IMG/VR virus record: IMGVR_UViG_2713897042_000007 | Source of the DNA: a virus | Taxonomy: Duplodnaviria > Heunggongvirae > Uroviricota > Caudoviricetes | DNA length: 32,946 bases | Strand: one strand, 5' to 3' | Part shown: positions 1 to 28,066 of the stretch, piece after piece | Position numbering within the stretch: position 1 is the first letter of the stretch | Layout: every line of letters begins with the position of its first letter | Program-made: the position numbers and the translations under genes | Notes under the pieces: model-generated | The model's input: only the letters and a program-made list of their open reading frames with translations | Databases searched by the model: none | Told to the model about the DNA's origin: nothing

Positions 1-996
1 TTATGGACGCATTATGGACATTCCTGACACCGGGTTAAGAGTCACTGCATCTTGTAAGAAATCCGGTGCAAAGTGTGCGTAGGTCATAGTTTGCTGAATG
101 TTAGAATGACCCAGGATGCGCTGCAATGTGATTATGTTACCTCCATTCATTATAAAATGTGTGGCAAATGTATGCCTCAAAACATGCACTGCCTGTCCGT
201 CAGGTAAATCGGGTTTTACTTCCCTGAGAGCGTTGCGCACTTTGTAGTAACTGGCATTAAAAAGCCTGCCTGAATTTTTGGTCTTGATCCGTTTAATCAG
301 GTCCTGCGAAACGGGAATTGTCCTGCGCTTTCCGTTTTTAGTTTTCATAAACGTAACCATCTGGTTAATGATGTGTTCAGCTTTTAAATTAGACACTTCA
401 CTCCAACGTCCACCAGTAGAAAGGCAGACCAGCGTTGCATTTAATTCATCGCCATCAAGCATGGATAACAGCCGCGTAATCTCTTCACTGGACAAAAAAG
501 CCATTTCCGTAACAGCTTCACGTAACCGCTTAACCTCACGGAACGGGTTGTGAGAGTGGTATTCACCGGCGTCAATTAACTTGGTGAACATCCCGCTCAT
601 TATTGCCAGATGCCGATTTACGCTGGCTGGTTTTAGACCATCGTTCATCATTACAACGCGATAATCAGTTATCGTTTTCTTTGTTAGCTGGTCTGCTCTG
701 GACACTCCCATTTCTGCAAATTTGGCGATTATTGTCGTTAAACGCCCTCGTTCAATATCTCCACGCTCATGTGATTTTCCGTGATATATCCACCATCTGC
801 CTAACAACTCTGTAAGAGTTCGGCGGTCGGCTGGCTTCTCTAACCACTCTTTGTTGTGATAATTAACCAGCACATGACGTTCGAATGCCTGAGCTTCACC
901 TTTAGTTTTAAATTTCCGCCTGATACGTTTTCCATCTGCACCCTGCGGTCTGACGTCCACTTCATAACGACCATCATCGAGCTTTTTAATAGACAT
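1..996 (-). CDS. int: P2-type tyrosine integrase
   Basis: 331-aa ORF ending at the window edge (stop at 1-3). C-terminal tyrosine-recombinase signature (HVLRHTFATH...GHSNIQQTMTYAH). GGAGG RBS upstream of the ATG at 994-996. Sits beside the C repressor as in P2. Confidence 0.93.
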   Translation of the reverse strand: MSIKKLDDGRYEVDVRPQGADGKRIRRKFKTKGEAQAFERHVLVNYHNKEWLEKPADRRTLTELLGRWWIYHGKSHERGDIERGRLTTIIAKFAEMGVSRADQLTKKTITDYRVVMMNDGLKPASVNRHLAIMSGMFTKLIDAGEYHSHNPFREVKRLREAVTEMAFLSSEEITRLLSMLDGDELNATLVCLSTGGRWSEVSNLKAEHIINQMVTFMKTKNGKRRTIPVSQDLIKRIKTKNSGRLFNASYYKVRNALREVKPDLPDGQAVHVLRHTFATHFIMNGGNIITLQRILGHSNIQQTMTYAHFAPDFLQDAVTLNPVSGMSIMRP

Positions 997-21428: not shown

Positions 21429-24170
21429 ATGAGCACGAAATTTAAAACCGTTATCACTACTGCCGGAGCCGCAAAGCTGGCAGCCGCCACTGTCCCCGGC
21501 GGGAAAAAAGTAAACCTGTCTGCAATGGCCGTGGGTGACGGTAATGGCAAATTGCCGGTGCCGGATGTCGGTCAGACGAAACTGGTGCATGAGGTCTGGC
21601 GTCACGCTCTGAATAAAGTCAGCGTGGATAACAAGAATAAAAACTATATCGTGGCTGAACTGGTTGTACCGCCCGAAGTGGGCGGCTTCTGGATGCGTGA
21701 ACTTGGTCTGTATGACGATGCCGGAACACTGATTGCGGTATCCAACATGGCAGAAAGCTATAAGCCAGAACTGGCTGAAGGCTCCGGACGTGCGCAGGCC
21801 TGCCGCATGGTTATTATTCTCAGCAACGTGGCGTCCGTTGAGCTGAGTATTGATGCCAGCACAGTGATGGCGACGCAGGATTACGTCGATGACAAAATCG
21901 CAGAGCATGAGCAGTCCCGCCGCCATCCTGACGCCACGCTGACAGAAAAAGGTTTTACTCAGTTAAGCAGTGCAACAAACAGCACCAGTGAAAAGCTGGC
22001 GGCAACGCCAAAAGCGGTCAAGGTAGCAAATGACAACGCAAATTCACGTCTGGCGAAAAATCAGAACGGTGCAGATATCCAGGATAAATCAGCTTTTCTG
22101 GACAATATTGGCGTTACCAGCCTGACGTTTATGAAACACAATGGAATGATTCCAACCACTGACAATCTTGACTCCTATGGCCCAGAAGAAAAATATCTTG
22201 GAACGTGGTCATGTCCGTCACAATCCACTGCAAAACCAGAGTCTGGTTACCCTGAAGATAAAGGCAATGGGGTTCTGGAAGTATTCAATGCTGGTCGCTT
22301 TCACTGCACACAACGCTACACCACCCGAACCGGTAATATTTACATTCGGATGCTTGATGCAGAATGGAACCCAGCCAGTCCAACATGGAGTGCATGGAGA
22401 GTTATTACAAGCGGGACTCGACCATTAAGCACGTCAATTGACCTGAATTCTTTAGGTGGCGCGGAACACCTAGGAATATGGCGCAATAGCAGTACATCAA
22501 TAGCCTCATTTGAACGTCATTTCCCGGAGGACGGGAGCTTTGGTCAGGGTATTCTGGAAGTCTTTGAAGGCGGTCTGTATGGGAGAATGCAACGTTACAC
22601 CACCCGTAGTGGGACTATGTACATTCGCGGACTGACTGCCCCATGGGATGCAGAGAATCCACAATGGGAGGACTGGATTGCTGTTGGGTATCAGTCCACG
22701 GGATGGACTTATTCAGGGGATCTTGATGACCTTTTAAAGCCTGGTATTTATAGCGTCACGAAACAGGCCACAAATGCACCAGTCACCGACTCTAAAGATC
22801 TTGCTGTTGGCTCAATAGTTGAAGTGAAAAAACGTTGTGATATTGAATCGTATATCCAGACATATACGACAGTTTCTGCAACGGATGCCTATAAAAACCG
22901 GACATTTCAACGAACTCGTGCCAGCGGTGAAGCTGACTGGGGGGAATGGGCGGAAGTTTACAACTCAAAATCATTACTCACTAAATTAGGTGTCGGCGGT
23001 GTTACCGACAGGTTATCCAGTCTGGACTGGCAGACCTACGACTTTGTGCCGGGCAGCATGATAACTGTCAGACTCTCCGATATGACCAATATCCCCGATG
23101 GGATGGAATGGGGCGTCATTGATACTAACCTGATAAATATCACTGTTGGCCCCAGTGAAGGTGGAGGTGTCGCCCGTTCAATGCAGGTATGGCGCAGCAC
23201 CTCAAACAAAACCAACTATCGTTTTTTTACAGTCCGCTTATATGGCAATCCTGGGGAGCGTAGCTTCAATATTCGTCGGCTACCAATTATCGACGAAGCC
23301 CAGACATGGGAGGCAAAACAGACATTCAGTGCAGGCCTTTCTGGTGAACTGTCCGGCAATGCGGCGACAGCAACAAAGCTGAAAACAGCCCGTAAAATTA
23401 ATAACGTTTCGTTTGATGGAACATCAGATATTAACCTGACGCCGAAAAATATTGGTGCATTTGCTTCAGGAAAAACAGGAGACACCGTTGCGAATGATAA
23501 AGCCGTTGGATGGAACTGGAGTAGCGGAGCCTATAACGCAACTACTGGTGGGGCATCAACGTTAATTCTTCATTTTAATATCGGTGAAGGTAGTTGTCCC
23601 GCAGCCCAGTTCCGCGTTAATTATAAGAACGGCGGTATTTTTTATCGTTCTGCTCGTGATGGTTACGGATTCGAGGCTGACTGGTCTGAGTTTTATACCA
23701 CAACGCGAAAACCTACAGCGGGAGATGTTGGTGCACTGTCGTTATCTGGTGGTCAATTGAATGGTGCACTGGGCATCGGAACATCCAGTGCTCTTGGCGG
23801 TAATTCGATTGTTTTGGGTGATAATGACACGGGCTTTAAACAAAATGGTGATGGTAATCTGGATGTTTATGCTAATAGCGTCCATGTTATGCGCTTTGTC
23901 TCCGGAAGCATTCAAAGTAATAAAACCATAAATATTACGGGGCGTGTTAATCCTTCGGATTACGGTAACTTTGATTCCCGCTATGTGAGAGATGTCAGAC
24001 TTGGCACTCGTGTTGTTCAGACCATGCAGAAAGGGGTGATGTATGAGAAAGCAGGGCACGTAATTACAGGGCTTGGTATTGTCGGTGAAGTCGATGGTGA
24101 TGACCCCGCAGTATTCAGACCAATACAAAAATACATCAATGGCACATGGTATAACGTTGCACAGGTGTAA
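21429..24170 (+). CDS. H: Tail fiber protein H (enlarged, mosaic)
   Basis: 913 aa, against about 669 aa for P2 H as I recall. Conserved N-terminal region, three tandem repeats of about 100 aa in the middle, and a C-terminal region (GNAATATKLKTARKINNVSFDGTSDINLT) of the kind seen in Mu/P1/lambda side tail fibers. Confidence 0.88.
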   Translation: MSTKFKTVITTAGAAKLAAATVPGGKKVNLSAMAVGDGNGKLPVPDVGQTKLVHEVWRHALNKVSVDNKNKNYIVAELVVPPEVGGFWMRELGLYDDAGTLIAVSNMAESYKPELAEGSGRAQACRMVIILSNVASVELSIDASTVMATQDYVDDKIAEHEQSRRHPDATLTEKGFTQLSSATNSTSEKLAATPKAVKVANDNANSRLAKNQNGADIQDKSAFLDNIGVTSLTFMKHNGMIPTTDNLDSYGPEEKYLGTWSCPSQSTAKPESGYPEDKGNGVLEVFNAGRFHCTQRYTTRTGNIYIRMLDAEWNPASPTWSAWRVITSGTRPLSTSIDLNSLGGAEHLGIWRNSSTSIASFERHFPEDGSFGQGILEVFEGGLYGRMQRYTTRSGTMYIRGLTAPWDAENPQWEDWIAVGYQSTGWTYSGDLDDLLKPGIYSVTKQATNAPVTDSKDLAVGSIVEVKKRCDIESYIQTYTTVSATDAYKNRTFQRTRASGEADWGEWAEVYNSKSLLTKLGVGGVTDRLSSLDWQTYDFVPGSMITVRLSDMTNIPDGMEWGVIDTNLINITVGPSEGGGVARSMQVWRSTSNKTNYRFFTVRLYGNPGERSFNIRRLPIIDEAQTWEAKQTFSAGLSGELSGNAATATKLKTARKINNVSFDGTSDINLTPKNIGAFASGKTGDTVANDKAVGWNWSSGAYNATTGGASTLILHFNIGEGSCPAAQFRVNYKNGGIFYRSARDGYGFEADWSEFYTTTRKPTAGDVGALSLSGGQLNGALGIGTSSALGGNSIVLGDNDTGFKQNGDGNLDVYANSVHVMRFVSGSIQSNKTINITGRVNPSDYGNFDSRYVRDVRLGTRVVQTMQKGVMYEKAGHVITGLGIVGEVDGDDPAVFRPIQKYINGTWYNVAQV

Positions 24171-24173
24171 TTT

Positions 24174-24701
24174 ATGCAGCATTTAAAAAATATTACTGCG
24201 GGTAATCCAAAAACTGTTGCCCAATATCAACTGACAAAAAATTTTGATGTTATCTGGTTATGGTCCGAAGAGGGAAAAAACTGGTATGAGGAAGTAAGTA
24301 ATTTTCAGGAAGACACGATAAAGATTGTTTACGACGAGAATAATATAATTGTCGGCATCACCAGAGATGCTTCAACGCTTAACCCTGAAGGTTTTAGCGT
24401 TGTCGAGGTTCCTGATATTACCGCCAACCGACGTGCTGATGACTCAGGTAAATGGATGTTTAAGGATGGTGCTGTGATTAAGCGGATTTATACGGCAGAC
24501 GAACAGCTGCAACTGGCGGAATTACAGAAGTCAGCTTTGCTTTCCGAAGCTGAAACTATCATTCAGCCACTGGAACGCTCTGTCAGACTGAATATGGCAA
24601 CAGATGAGGAGCGTAGCCGACTGGAAGCATGGGAACGCTACAGTGTTCTGGTCAGCCGTGTGGATCCTGCAAATCCTGAATGGCCGGAAATGCCGCAATA
24701 A
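24174..24701 (+). CDS. G: Tail fiber assembly chaperone G
   Basis: 175 aa, the P2 G length, immediately after H. Confidence 0.88.
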
Positions 24702-24735
24702 GTTGTATGATCTCTGGAGTGAGCTAACGTATCTA

Positions 24736-24890
24736 TAGCACAGAGTAAAGCCTAATCTGACAGTCTGCTCTGTGCTAGGAGCGGACTGACCTGCTCCCCG
24801 ATGATTAATACACAGCTATGCTAGTAATGTCCGTAGATCGCTGTGTGTTGCATCCATCGGTTGAACTCACAGTCCAAACCAGACTGTCAG
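24736..24890. repeat. Inverted-repeat-rich non-coding leader
   Basis: 10-bp perfect stem TAGCACAGAG (24736-24745) / CTCTGTGCTA (24768-24777). 11-bp inverted pair CTGACAGTCTG (24757-24767) / CAGACTGTCAG (24880-24890). No ORF in the track covers this region. Confidence 0.6.
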
Positions 24891-25122
24891 CTTTGATTAG
24901 ATTCTACCTACTCAACCTGTCAGATAAGGTCTGAGCTAATACATCTAATATATGGCTTTGTGCAGGGGACGGCTATCGCGAACGTTAGGCCAGGTATCTG
25001 AATACGCACAGTTCACTTGGTTGTACTTCTTGCACTGATCTGCTATCCCGCACAGCTATTTATAGGTAATCTTCAGTGTATAATCTGCCAACTTATGGAA
25101 GCTTGTACAACAGGAGAAATAT

Positions 25123-25965
25123 ATGAAAAAAGAATTGTTTGGACGTTGCCCGTTTGATCTTGACGAAGATGTAAAAAAAATAGCCGCGATAAATAAATAT
25201 ATCCATGCAAAATTTGAGGAGCATAAAAATAAAATAGACAACCTAAAGGGTGTGGAACAAAAATTGATGGTCTTACAGTACTTTAATGTACTGAATGAAC
25301 TTAGTAATCAGGCTATCTCTTCTTTGAATATAGGAGCCTTTTCAGCATCGGAAGTATTAGCTAGGGTTATAATAGAACAGGCTGCCAATCAATTTTATAT
25401 AGCAATAGATGATGGCGAAAATGCACAAGCGTTACTCAAGGCTAGTAAGAAATTAGTTCATAGTAATGGAAAACGGTGGCTGGAGTGTTTAAAATCCAAA
25501 GGAATGACTAATCCAGCAGCAAATGAAAGGATTCGCATGGGAAAAGAACTAACTGATCTATTTAATAGATTGTGGCCAAATACACCTGAATATCCAGGAA
25601 CCAGAAAACTTTTTGAATTAATTGGCTGGGAAACACACTATCATGCCCATTACGTTCCCCTTTGTGATTCAATACATACATTCTCTGATGATATGGTAAA
25701 TATAGTATCTCTATATAATGCAATCCAAAGTGATGAAACTACTGCTATCGAATTCATTCTTGCAGTTAAACAAGAAAATAAACGGCTGGCAATTTATAAT
25801 TTTGTAATTGCTACGGCCCTTCGGTGTGAGGCCTTAGTAAATGTATTTAACTCTTTAGGTTATCAGGATATTATAACAGAAATGACACCAACAATAGATA
25901 CAGTCAACCAGACTATAATTCGATATGATGATTTTGATCATTCCAGAATTGATGATTGTCAATAA
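25123..25965 (+). CDS. Hypothetical cargo protein (position of P2 Z/fun)
   Basis: 280-aa ORF with AGGAGA RBS and a TATAAT-like element about 40 bp upstream. Strongly AT-rich. No catalytic motif I can recognise. Confidence 0.7.
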   Translation: MKKELFGRCPFDLDEDVKKIAAINKYIHAKFEEHKNKIDNLKGVEQKLMVLQYFNVLNELSNQAISSLNIGAFSASEVLARVIIEQAANQFYIAIDDGENAQALLKASKKLVHSNGKRWLECLKSKGMTNPAANERIRMGKELTDLFNRLWPNTPEYPGTRKLFELIGWETHYHAHYVPLCDSIHTFSDDMVNIVSLYNAIQSDETTAIEFILAVKQENKRLAIYNFVIATALRCEALVNVFNSLGYQDIITEMTPTIDTVNQTIIRYDDFDHSRIDDCQ

Positions 25966-26071
25966 TTAATTGACAGAATACGTACATGCGCAACAACTAG
26001 TGATAGTTGACTTATTTTCGCTCTTGAGAGACAACCATACTCAAATCTCCCACATTGCAGGAGATTTGAAT

Positions 26072-26179
26072 ATGAAAACATCACCGTGGAATAAAGACCG
26101 TACCATCGGTCAAAAAAGGCCACTTCAGATATCTCATATCTGGGGGATCCGGATTAGACTTGAGTTGGAAGGTAAATAA
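26072..26179 (+). CDS. Possible small basic peptide
   Basis: 35-aa ORF (MKTSPWNKDRTIGQKRPLQISHIWGIRIRLELEGK) with AGGAGA 8 nt upstream. A weak GGGCA/TGCCC hairpin plus T-rich tract follows. Confidence 0.3.
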   Translation: MKTSPWNKDRTIGQKRPLQISHIWGIRIRLELEGK

Positions 26180-26344
26180 ATTGTCAGTCGGAAAATAAGT
26201 GAGTACAAATTAGGGCAGGTGAGCGAATTGCCCGCCTTTTCTTTACCGGTGGTTGTGCTGTCGATTAGCCAACCGGGACAAATAGCCTGACATCTCCGGC
26301 ACAACTGAAAATACCACTCACCCATTAACCACGGAGTTAAACGG

Positions 26345-27535
26345 ATGAGCGACTATCATCATGGCGTGCAGGTGCTGGAGATTAACGACGGCACCCGCGT
26401 CATTTCCACCGTATCCACCGCCATTGTCGGCATGGTCTGCACGGCCAGCGATGCGGATGCGGAAATCTTCCCCCTCAATAAACCGGTGCTGATCACCAAT
26501 GTGCAGAGCGCAATTGCAAAGGCCGGTAAAAAAGGCACGCTGGCGGCATCGTTGCAGGCCATCGCTGACCAGTCAAAACCGGTCACCGTTGTCGTGCGCG
26601 TGGAAGACGGAACCGGCGACGACGAAGAAACGAAACTCGCGCAGACCGTTTCCAATATTATCGGCACCACCGACGAAAACGGTCAGTACACCGGACTGAA
26701 AGCCCTGCTGGCGGCGGAGTCGGTAACCGGTGTTAAACCGCGCATTCTCGGTGTGCCGGGACTGGACACCAAAGAGGTGGCTGTTGCACTGGCATCAGTC
26801 TGTCAGAAGCTGCGCGCTTTCGGGTATATCAGCGCATGGGGCTGTAAAACCATTTCCGAGGTGAAAGCCTACCGTCAGAATTTCAGCCAGCGTGAGCTGA
26901 TGGTCATCTGGCCGGATTTCCTCGCATGGGATACGGTCACCAGTACCACCGCCACCGCGTATGCCACCGCCCGTGCACTGGGCTTGCGCGCTAAAATCGA
27001 CCAGGAGCAGGGCTGGCATAAAACACTGTCCAACGTCGGGGTGAACGGTGTTACCGGCATCAGCGCATCTGTATTCTGGGATTTGCAGGAGTCCGGCACT
27101 GATGCTGACCTGCTTAACGAGTCAGGCGTCACAACGCTGATTCGCCGTGATGGTTTCCGCTTCTGGGGTAACCGTACCTGCTCTGATGACCCGCTGTTCC
27201 TCTTTGAAAACTACACCCGCACCGCGCAGGTGCTGGCCGACACGATGGCTGAGGCGCACATGTGGGCGGTGGACAAGCCCATCACCGCAACGCTGATTCG
27301 CGACATCGTTGACGGCATCAATGCCAAATTCCGTGAGCTGAAAACAAACGGCTATATCGTGGATGCGACCTGCTGGTTCAGCGAAGAATCCAACGATGCG
27401 GAAACCCTCAAGGCCGGAAAACTGTATATCGACTACGACTATACACCGGTGCCTCCTCTCGAAAACCTGACCCTGCGCCAGCGTATTACCGATAAATACC
27501 TGGCAAATCTGGTCACTTCGGTTAACAGCAATTAA
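26345..27535 (+). CDS. FI: Contractile tail sheath protein
   Basis: 396 aa, the P2 FI length. Confidence 0.93.
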   Translation: MSDYHHGVQVLEINDGTRVISTVSTAIVGMVCTASDADAEIFPLNKPVLITNVQSAIAKAGKKGTLAASLQAIADQSKPVTVVVRVEDGTGDDEETKLAQTVSNIIGTTDENGQYTGLKALLAAESVTGVKPRILGVPGLDTKEVAVALASVCQKLRAFGYISAWGCKTISEVKAYRQNFSQRELMVIWPDFLAWDTVTSTTATAYATARALGLRAKIDQEQGWHKTLSNVGVNGVTGISASVFWDLQESGTDADLLNESGVTTLIRRDGFRFWGNRTCSDDPLFLFENYTRTAQVLADTMAEAHMWAVDKPITATLIRDIVDGINAKFRELKTNGYIVDATCWFSEESNDAETLKAGKLYIDYDYTPVPPLENLTLRQRITDKYLANLVTSVNSN

Positions 27536-27547
27536 GGAGCCTGACCG

Positions 27548-28066
27548 ATGGCAATGCCGCGCAAACTCAAGTTAATGAACGTCTTTCTGAACGGCTACAG
27601 CTATCAGTGCGTTGCAAAGTCCGTCACGCTGCCAAAACTGACCCGTAAGCTCGAAAACTATCGCGGTGCGGGGATGAACGGCAGCGCACCGGTAGACCTC
27701 GGCCTTGATGACGATGCGCTGTCAATGGAGTGGTCTCTCGGGGGCTTCCCGGATTCGGTTATCTGGGAGCTTTACGCCGCAACCGGTGTGGATGCTGTGC
27801 CGATTCGTTTTGCCGGTTCTTACCAGCGCGACGATACCGGCGAAACGGTGGCCGTCGAGGTGGTCATGCGTGGACGTCAGAAAGAAATCGACACCGGCGA
27901 GGGGAAACAGGGAGAAGACACCGAGTCGAAAATCTCCGTGGTCTGTACCTATTTCCGGCTGACGATGGACGGTAAGGAGTTGGTCGAAATTGACACCATC
28001 AACATGATTGAGAAGGTGAACGGCGTCGACCGGCTGGAGCAACACCGCCGCAATATCGGCCTGTGA
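27548..28066 (+). CDS. FII: Tail tube protein
   Basis: 172 aa, the P2 FII length. Confidence 0.93.
   Translation: MAMPRKLKLMNVFLNGYSYQCVAKSVTLPKLTRKLENYRGAGMNGSAPVDLGLDDDALSMEWSLGGFPDSVIWELYAATGVDAVPIRFAGSYQRDDTGETVAVEVVMRGRQKEIDTGEGKQGEDTESKISVVCTYFRLTMDGKELVEIDTINMIEKVNGVDRLEQHRRNIGL

Follow-up and report, generated by a model that had tools for sequence, protein, structure and literature searches.

Mobile insertion cassettes and MITE-like elements carry passengers between terminal inverted repeats and are moved in trans; examples are MIC231 of Bacillus cereus and the Tn3-derived TIMEs. Transposon Tn552 has repeats of 116 bp and produces target duplications of 6-7 bp, and the IS21 family, Tn7 and Mu likewise have long ends with multiple sites. 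Insertion sequences of the IS30 family, in turn, target palindromes.

The interval between the tail genes G and FI of phage P2 is the variable 'Z/fun' locus, which a passage of Rousset et al. (2022) names as one of two sites in P2 that are hotspots for anti-phage genes. GenBank entries AJ512676-AJ512685 (Nilsson, Karlsson and Haggard-Ljungquist, Mol Biol Evol 2004) annotate a 'left inverted repeat' in the Z region of P2 and a 'right inverted repeat' before FI. In the feature tables of AJ512683 and AJ512680, the former is entered as a repeat_region (3..115), and the latter is listed as its counterpart. The literature citing Nilsson 2004 or Odegrip 2006 that we searched did not describe these inverted repeats. 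A 2026 survey of thousands of P2/P4 hotspots reported that transposable elements were almost absent, and left open the route of exchange with other mobile elements.

Here we analyse a stretch of viral DNA of 32,946 nucleotides (hereafter the window). A preliminary description, made from the sequence alone, had pointed out long inverted repeats in a non-coding leader and had favoured a folded RNA, with a recombination or protein-binding site as fallback. Our results indicate that these repeats are most probably the DNA ends of a mobile-element shell, i.e. of a non-autonomous, cargo-bearing transposon, and not an RNA.

Results

Location and anatomy of the element

In the window, which is a P2-like E. 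coli prophage, the inverted repeats lie between the tail genes G and FI (Table 1). The same locus was present in 55 complete E. coli genomes at 99-100% identity, including those of IHE3034, S88 and ATCC 11775. Of the non-coding stretch downstream of G, only the first ~85 nt (24702-24786) are common to other P2-like phages. This segment was shared by ~1,200 of the 1,263 matched E. coli records at 80-95% identity, whatever cargo they carried, and phage P2 itself matched as well. It is located directly 3' of G and is 87-92% identical, over 84-87 nt, to the annotated left repeats of P2 (AJ512683, AJ512680 and others). The remainder of the stretch (24787-25122) goes with the DUF5677 gene and not with the phage backbone. 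The term 'leader', which had been applied to the region, therefore suits it poorly: the first segment has homologues in P2-like phages carrying unrelated cargo, and the sole good -10 element upstream of the DUF5677 ORF (TATAAT, spotted by eye and not flagged by the promoter scan) is located downstream of the repeats.

All repeats listed in the preliminary description were found in the window. The perfect 10-bp stem (hairpin A in Table 1) is intrinsic to the left-end type. The 11-mer CTGACAGTCTG (24757-24767) pairs with CAGACTGTCAG within a pair of 28-nt arms that are 75% complementary; each 11-mer combines the second CTGACAG motif with the initial bases of the inner palindrome, and the two units to which they belong face each other. 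A third copy, CTGTCAG, is likewise present. The direct repeat CACAGCTAT, at 24811 and 25051, represents two copies of an IS3-type end, of which the second is degenerate; the likeness of this second copy to an IS end was read by eye and was not flagged by the scan. The region was also correctly described as free of genes, with no ORF of at least 40 aa within 24739-24925. Every one of the listed repeats is accounted for by transposon-type ends or IS fragments.

Table 1. Features of the window in and around the interval between genes G and FI, in order of position.
Feature	Position	Strand	Basis or remarks
Tail fibre H	21429-24170		Pfam
Tail-fibre assembly protein G	24174-24701		Pfam
Left 7-bp target duplication, AATAAGT	24697-24703	+	Overlaps G stop TAA (24699-24701); comparison of empty and filled sites
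Left end (LE), P2 Z-region 'left inverted repeat'	24704-24786	+	Starts 5'-TGTATGATC, ends ...GAGCGGAC
LE, CTGACAG	24757-24763
LE, hairpin A	24736-24745/24768-24777
LE, inner palindrome	24761-24770/24779-24788
IS3-family left terminal repeat fragment (TGACCTGCTCCCC...)	24787-24833	+	Aligns directly upstream of transposase ORFs in L005 and L006
ISCfr4-like IS30-family right end, last ~28 nt (...GGTTGAACTCACA)	24844-24871	+	Matches right end of the element in L007, L092 and L091
Inverted right-end-type unit (RE')	24872-24943	-	Inner ~16 nt missing; outer terminus ...GAGCTAATACA at 24943
RE', CAGACTGTCAG	24880-24890
RE', CTGTCAG	24917-24923
Cargo-specific non-coding DNA upstream of DUF5677 ORF	24944-25122	+	Moves with DUF5677 gene into lambdoid prophage
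Second, degenerate IS3-type end	25037-25075	+	Within 24944-25122
TATAAT	25079-25084	+	Within 24944-25122
Shine-Dalgarno		+	Within 24944-25122
Cargo gene, DUF5677-family protein, 280 aa	25123-25965	+	Pfam PF18928, E = 5e-10
Small tyrosine recombinase remnant, 35 codons + stop	26072-26179	+	tblastn, 97% over 35 aa against 194-aa ORF of L048
Canonical right end (RE), outer 28 nt (...TTGTCAGTCGGAAAATAAGTGAGTACA)	26180-26207	-	Aligns to P2-EC58 'right inverted repeat' and to L048 6781-6883
Right 7-bp target duplication, AATTAGG	26208-26214	+	Comparison of empty and filled sites
Hairpin + T-run	26215-26244	+	Comparison of L044 and L016 with the window
Sheath FI	26345-27535		Pfam
Tube FII	27548-28066		Pfam

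The nhmmer profile of the repeat unit matched LE at 24688-24787 (E = 1e-20), where the outer motif copy is degenerate (CTAACG), and RE' at 24954-24875 on the minus strand (model positions 9-88, E = 5e-13). RE' is ~95% identical in the lambdoid prophage L088, and a copy with 80% identity adjoins a VbhA cassette in contig L004. LE and RE' are 85 bp apart and have non-matching flanks (AATAAGT vs TCTAATA), and the pair has therefore arisen through recombination and not through a single transposition. The full right repeat, of which 28 nt are left in the window, is present in a longer allele of the locus (contig L048, 6781-6883).

The hairpin and T-run at 26215-26244 are probably the terminator of the V-W-J-I-H-G operon, because they are located directly after G in phages with an empty site. 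The stem has two mismatches in the window relative to L048, and the terminator scan missed it on the plus strand.

Architecture and distribution of the repeat unit

From 80 P2-like viral contigs, we aligned the borders of over 40 different cargos. The repeat unit is ~86 bp long, starts with 5'-TGT (TGTAYT) and ends with ACA-3'. Within it, the CTGACAG motif occurs twice, with the copies 33 bp apart, and its inner end is a palindrome, GTCYGCT...AGCGGACRTT. Over its full length, the unit has the consensus TGTATTAGCTCAGACTTGAnCTGACrGTTTTCACTGGCAGCACACAATCAAATCTGACAGTCTGCTTTGAGCGAnnAGCGGACRTT. Two types of unit were distinguished: left-type units, which have the TGGCACAGAG/CTCTGTGCCA stem, and right-type units. 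From outside to inside, both borders read AATCTGACAGTCYGCTYTG, five bases that vary with the type (tgcca left, agcga right) and NNAGCGGACRTT. The inner edge is sharp, as on both sides more than 40 unrelated cargos begin directly after GGACRTT. A clear-cut outer edge, TGTATTAGCTCAGAC, was seen in ~20 Enterobacterales loci, most of them without P2 genes nearby.

We scanned one genome per species (596 Gb) with a core of 16 specified bases. About half of the matches were chance matches, as expected, and we used only the Enterobacterales matches and those confirmed by the unit profile. Besides the chance matches, the scan yielded ~22 Enterobacterales loci. With the nhmmer profile, convergent pairs of units were found in nearly all filled P2-like loci, and also in Cedecea, Pantoea, Kosakonia, Klebsiella, an Acinetobacter and an uncultured bacterium. 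Another 98 convergent pairs were obtained from 120 further viral contigs, which were fetched by the terminal 19-mer. The right-type consensus matched 1,364 of the 5,426 complete E. coli genomes. In the loci that were fetched, the DNA adjacent to the units formed 123 clusters among 361 segments. The cargos include defence-like genes but are not limited to them: in Klebsiella spallanzanii the cargo, located downstream of carB, is a chloride channel, and in Pantoea it is a set of metabolic genes.

Several arrangements of the units recurred. A small pair of units, ~630 bp overall with ~460 bp between its ends, was present in L144 (4335-4965) and in more than 60 other viral contigs, and seemingly represents one conserved prophage locus. 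Right-type units with the identical outer flank AGGCTAACATCCAGTTAGC were found in L004 (2985-3086), L111 (7752-7855) and L137 (5603-5705). These units span E. coli, Pantoea and Enterobacter and differ in their inner sequences; the site looks like a second hotspot of the same kind, common across genera.

Target duplications and empty sites

Perfect 7-bp duplications were found outside TGT...ACA in L136 (CTTAATA), L141 (GCTAATA), L138 (CACTATT), L129 (AATAATT) and L111 (GCTAACT). Among the further viral pairs, 7 of the 21 distinct pairs also had a perfect 7-bp duplication. Over these five genome loci and seven viral pairs, the target duplications have a fixed length and at least nine different sequences. 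One site, CTATATC, carried cargos of three different sizes. About half of the distinct viral pairs had poor flank identity, which could be due to miscalled termini or to end exchange.

Empty sites were found in the P2-like contigs L044, L016, L061, L074 and L077, where the terminator hairpin follows 4 nt after the G stop and the G-FI interval measures ~130 bp. The sequence of the empty site is CGC-AATAAAY-ACAGGCGGGC, in which AATAAAY occurs once, and that of the filled site is CGC-AATAAGT, followed by the element and then by AATCAGG or AATTAGG and ACAGGCGGGC. To judge from these sequences, empty and filled P2-like loci have the geometry of a 7-bp duplication whose two copies have drifted. The two copies in P2 are only 4-5/7 identical (AATAAGT vs AATCAGG or AATTAGG) and are thus weaker than the perfect cases, which fits an old insertion. 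The repeats are missing from these otherwise homologous P2-like phages, an observation that the preliminary description had itself named among those that would count against a folded RNA.

The insertion in P2 is located between the G stop codon and the terminator. Elements with these units tend to sit in or next to intrinsic-terminator hairpins, as in L111 (1575-7855), in the left flanks of L104 and L120, and in the window (26215-26244). For L111, the predicted empty site reads AAAAGAGGCTAACTGGATGTTAGCCTTTTTT.

Neither the cargos of L111, L138, L141 and L110 nor ten larger viral cargos, the twelve largest cargo clusters or ten ORFs adjacent to units yielded a transposase or an autonomous copy; the IS30-type and DDE_3 genes near units are separate elements. 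The designation 'transposon' is based on end architecture, duplications and empty sites.

Insertion sequence fragments between the units

Between LE and RE', the window contains fragments of two insertion sequences. The IS3-family fragment (24787-24833) is one that we take to belong to the IS407 group. In L005 and L006, the transposase ORFs next to the corresponding IS3-type end encode HTH_Tnp_1 and HTH_21 domains, and a plasmid search with this IS3-type element did not retrieve a named IS. The second element, which is ISCfr4-like, has the termini TGTGAGTTCAAC...GTTGAACTCACA, as set by its intact insertions in L110 and L106, and its transposase has HTH_38 and rve domains.

The intact copies in L110 (300-1560) and L106 (2400-3650) are located at the centre of the inner palindrome of the unit. 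Both are inserted at the identical position, between GTCTGCTTTGAGC and GCGAnnAGCGGAC, in opposite orientations, each with a 2-bp GC duplication and in different genera. Hence, the inner palindrome is a preferred target of the ISCfr4-like IS, used site-specifically, which explains the location of the IS30-type debris in the window. The IS30-type fragment abuts the inner side of RE', consistent with an insertion at or near the inner-palindrome site.

Other assignments of these sequences were considered and rejected. The segment 24787-24869 was not retained as one 83-bp miniature IS with its own inverted ends, as it consists of two fragments, IS3-type on the left and IS30-type on the right. Two matches of a 19-mer (chance expectation 0.00) had pointed to homology between the inner part of the unit and the ISCfr4 terminal repeat; the IS, however, ends at TGTGAG.... 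Similarly, the units are not IS30-type terminal repeats, because the 13 nt that they have in common with the IS are its preferred palindromic target, as seen from the intact insertions in L110 and L106.

Cargo and tyrosine recombinase

RefSeq annotates the product of 25123-25965 as a DUF5677 domain-containing protein, and the protein had no match in PADLOC or NCBIfam. In a 2025 preprint, a DUF5677 gene from Bacillota was among nine phage-defence candidates and was not listed among the five that protected. The DUF5677 module, including 24787-25122, is ~89% identical in a lambdoid prophage, where it is located between replication gene P and hokD. Homology of the lambdoid copy is clear from ~24785-24787 onwards; upstream of this point it is weak, with ~60% resemblance to LE. 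The order RE'-DUF5677-recombinase is kept in the lambdoid copy, which suggests that the module moved between phage types together with the unit. The DUF5677 gene (window 25123-25965; L088 5318-6160) is preceded by the same module in the P2-like and lambdoid hotspots.

A longer allele of the locus was found in contig L048 and in 36 E. coli genomes. In this allele, the DUF5677 gene is followed by a gene for a tyrosine recombinase of 194 aa (catalytic domain only), an ORF of 129 aa and the full right end. The recombinase has weak NCBIfam matches to Xer/invertase families, and the 129-aa ORF looks hydrophobic by eye and has no Pfam or NCBIfam match. Alignment of the window with L048 showed that a deletion took the rest of the recombinase gene, the 129-aa ORF and most of the right end.

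The tyrosine recombinase (194-200 aa, catalytic domain only), truncated in the window and intact in the longer allele, was located at L048 5686-6270, L089 5055-5657, L090 5046-5648 and L110 2594-3361. The recombinase recurs with 88-93% protein identity in other prophage hotspots and islands, beside unrelated genes such as an anti-phage dGTPase, and this small tyrosine recombinase may mark mobile accessory cassettes. In the window, an inverted repeat of 19 pairs with a 3-nt loop (26035-26075) covers both the start codon and the RBS of the truncated recombinase gene. Read on the minus strand, this repeat was flagged by the scan as terminator-like; read on the plus strand, it would sequester the start of the recombinase gene.

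Alternative explanations

The most serious rival to transposon ends is that the inverted repeats are sites for the tyrosine recombinase of the cargo, and serve, like fimS or lox, either as an inversion switch or for the integration of cassettes. The longer form of the cargo (L048) carries an intact 194-aa gene for this enzyme, the gene recurs beside unit ends in L056, L064, L090 and L110 and is widespread beside defence genes, and the inner palindrome of P2-EC58 has a 13-8-13 form, as in lox. However, the 13-8-13 form was present in only 2 of the 40 left ends, most cargos are without a recombinase, and in the window the gene is cut to 35 codons. Moreover, the cargo had one orientation and was contiguous with G in all 55 E. 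coli genomes (55/55), and the 7-bp repeats flanking the elements vary by site, as expected of a staggered transposase cut and not of a fixed crossover core. On balance, we consider recombinase sites unlikely.

Alternatively, the hairpins might be transcription terminators or insulators, which would stop the late G transcript or prevent read-through from the cargo into the tail genes. Their position directly after G would suit this role, the same kind of hairpin-bearing unit is located at both exits of the hotspot, and several elements are found beside or inside terminator hairpins. Yet neither stem is followed by a T-run, and our scan of 24702-25050 found no terminator-like sites on either strand. 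In contrast, a recognisable terminator is located outside the element, directly after G in the empty-site phages. The units also have transposon-type edges and duplications, which terminators would not need. A role as terminators or insulators is therefore very unlikely.

The preliminary description had favoured a folded RNA, such as an sRNA, an antitoxin RNA, a riboregulator or a retron-like ncRNA. In this case, a structured ncRNA from the spacer between G and the DUF5677 gene would control or partner the DUF5677 protein. The 249-nt stretch indeed folded more strongly than its shuffled versions (z = -3.6; 0 of 200 shuffles folded as well), but the opposite strand folded equally well (z = -3.5). 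Since the z-scores are nearly equal on both strands, the signal is that of a DNA palindrome and is not strand-specific. Searches of Rfam gave no match at the gathering thresholds, and only chance-level matches at E up to 10, the best of which was a fragment of a Drosophila lncRNA.

Sequence variation between left ends pointed in the same direction. In 32 distinct left ends, including those of Acinetobacter (L136) and of a chromosomal island of E. coli strain 1303 (L090), RNAalifold recovered only the 10-bp stem, with a covariation term of -0.08, and none of 8 predicted pairs was kept by two-sided change. In a manual count over 39 left ends, the only variable stem position had A opposite C in six cases, opposite A in two and opposite T in two; the A-T pair of the window is therefore not a selected compensation. 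A few single-sided changes in the stem do yield G-U pairs on the plus strand. Overall, the stems are conserved as sequence, as expected for protein-binding DNA. Hairpin A in particular is strongly conserved in sequence, and may have some structural role in DNA or RNA.

The genomic setting offered the RNA one point in its favour, as 24787-25122 travels with the DUF5677 gene into another type of prophage. The stems, however, are part of the P2 left end, which was found with more than 40 unrelated cargos. No promoter-like sites were found by the scan of 24702-25050 on either strand, and there is none upstream of the region. No reverse transcriptase gene is adjacent, the neighbours being G, the DUF5677 protein, the recombinase remnant and FI, and the region of the repeats contains no tandem repeats. 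Although its 10-bp stem is perfect, a structured ncRNA is highly improbable, whereas the fallback of the preliminary description, a recombination or protein-binding site, was essentially right.

Discussion

The reading of the repeats as ends of a non-autonomous transposon suggests the following history of the locus. P2-like phages would carry a transposase-less transposon, inserted between the G stop and the operon terminator at what is now the 'Z/fun' hotspot. The window would then contain, in order, LE, debris of IS3- and IS30-family elements, an inverted right-type unit, the DUF5677 cargo and a deletion that spared the last 28 nt of RE. Because the termini are of the TG...CA type and the duplications have a fixed length and a sequence that varies by site, we infer that these elements were moved in the past by a DDE transposase that was provided in trans. 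At present, the conserved ends may function mainly as portable homology arms for cargo swaps between elements. Transcription would reach the region itself only passively, in the 3' tail of the late transcript of gene G.

A wider reading is possible, although in our view it falls somewhat short of probable. Transposase-less cargo transposons whose ends are the ~86-bp units may form a widespread family, one that has gone unrecognised in the recent hotspot literature. The 'Z/fun' locus of P2 would be one old insertion of this family, with related copies in lambdoid prophages and at chromosomal sites of several genera, and the ends would offer ~86 bp of homology for the exchange of defence cassettes.

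To a large extent our finding is a correction: there is no new RNA at this locus, and scans for structured RNAs in prophage hotspots should expect these repeats. The core observation is known, as the left and right inverted repeats have been annotated in GenBank since 2004. What may be absent from current use is the evidence from 7-bp duplications and empty sites, the occurrence of the units outside P2, the targeting by IS30-type elements and the idea of homology arms. The wider bearing is on how P2-like phages gain and lose anti-phage and accessory genes by swapping. Were the hotspot a transposon shell whose ends are portable, this would provide a concrete mechanism of exchange among P2-like phages, lambdoid phages and chromosomal islands. 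Furthermore, the units could serve as sequence tags for new cargo genes.

Compared with known systems, the locus resembles retron msr-msd regions and type III antitoxin RNAs in having non-coding inverted repeats beside a likely accessory gene in a prophage hotspot. It differs from them in having no reverse transcriptase, tandem repeats, Rfam match, covariation or strand bias. The targeting of palindromes by the IS30 family is seen in the ISCfr4-like IS, which occupies the palindrome of the unit in both orientations, at two loci independent of each other; such targeting accounts only for the debris at 24844-24871 and not for the units. The elements are like mobile insertion cassettes in their terminal inverted repeats, target duplications, empty sites, lack of a transposase inside and many types of passengers. 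In contrast to such cassettes, their units are long (~86 bp), of two types and internally structured, and we found no parent IS with the same ends. With Tn552, the IS21 family, Tn7 and Mu, the units share TG...CA termini, internal motifs repeated at a helical spacing (33 bp), left and right ends that differ from each other, and a duplication of 7 bp. This likeness is one of architecture, and in contrast to those transposons, we found neither transposase nor helper ATPase genes inside the copies. The repeats annotated in the Z region of P2 (AJ512676-AJ512685) occupy the same position between G and FI; window 24702-24786 matches the left repeat at the 87-92% identity given above, and 26180-26207 matches the outer part of the right repeat. 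Relative to these P2 repeats, the window has an extra, inverted right-type unit 85 bp from LE, and most of its true right repeat has been deleted.
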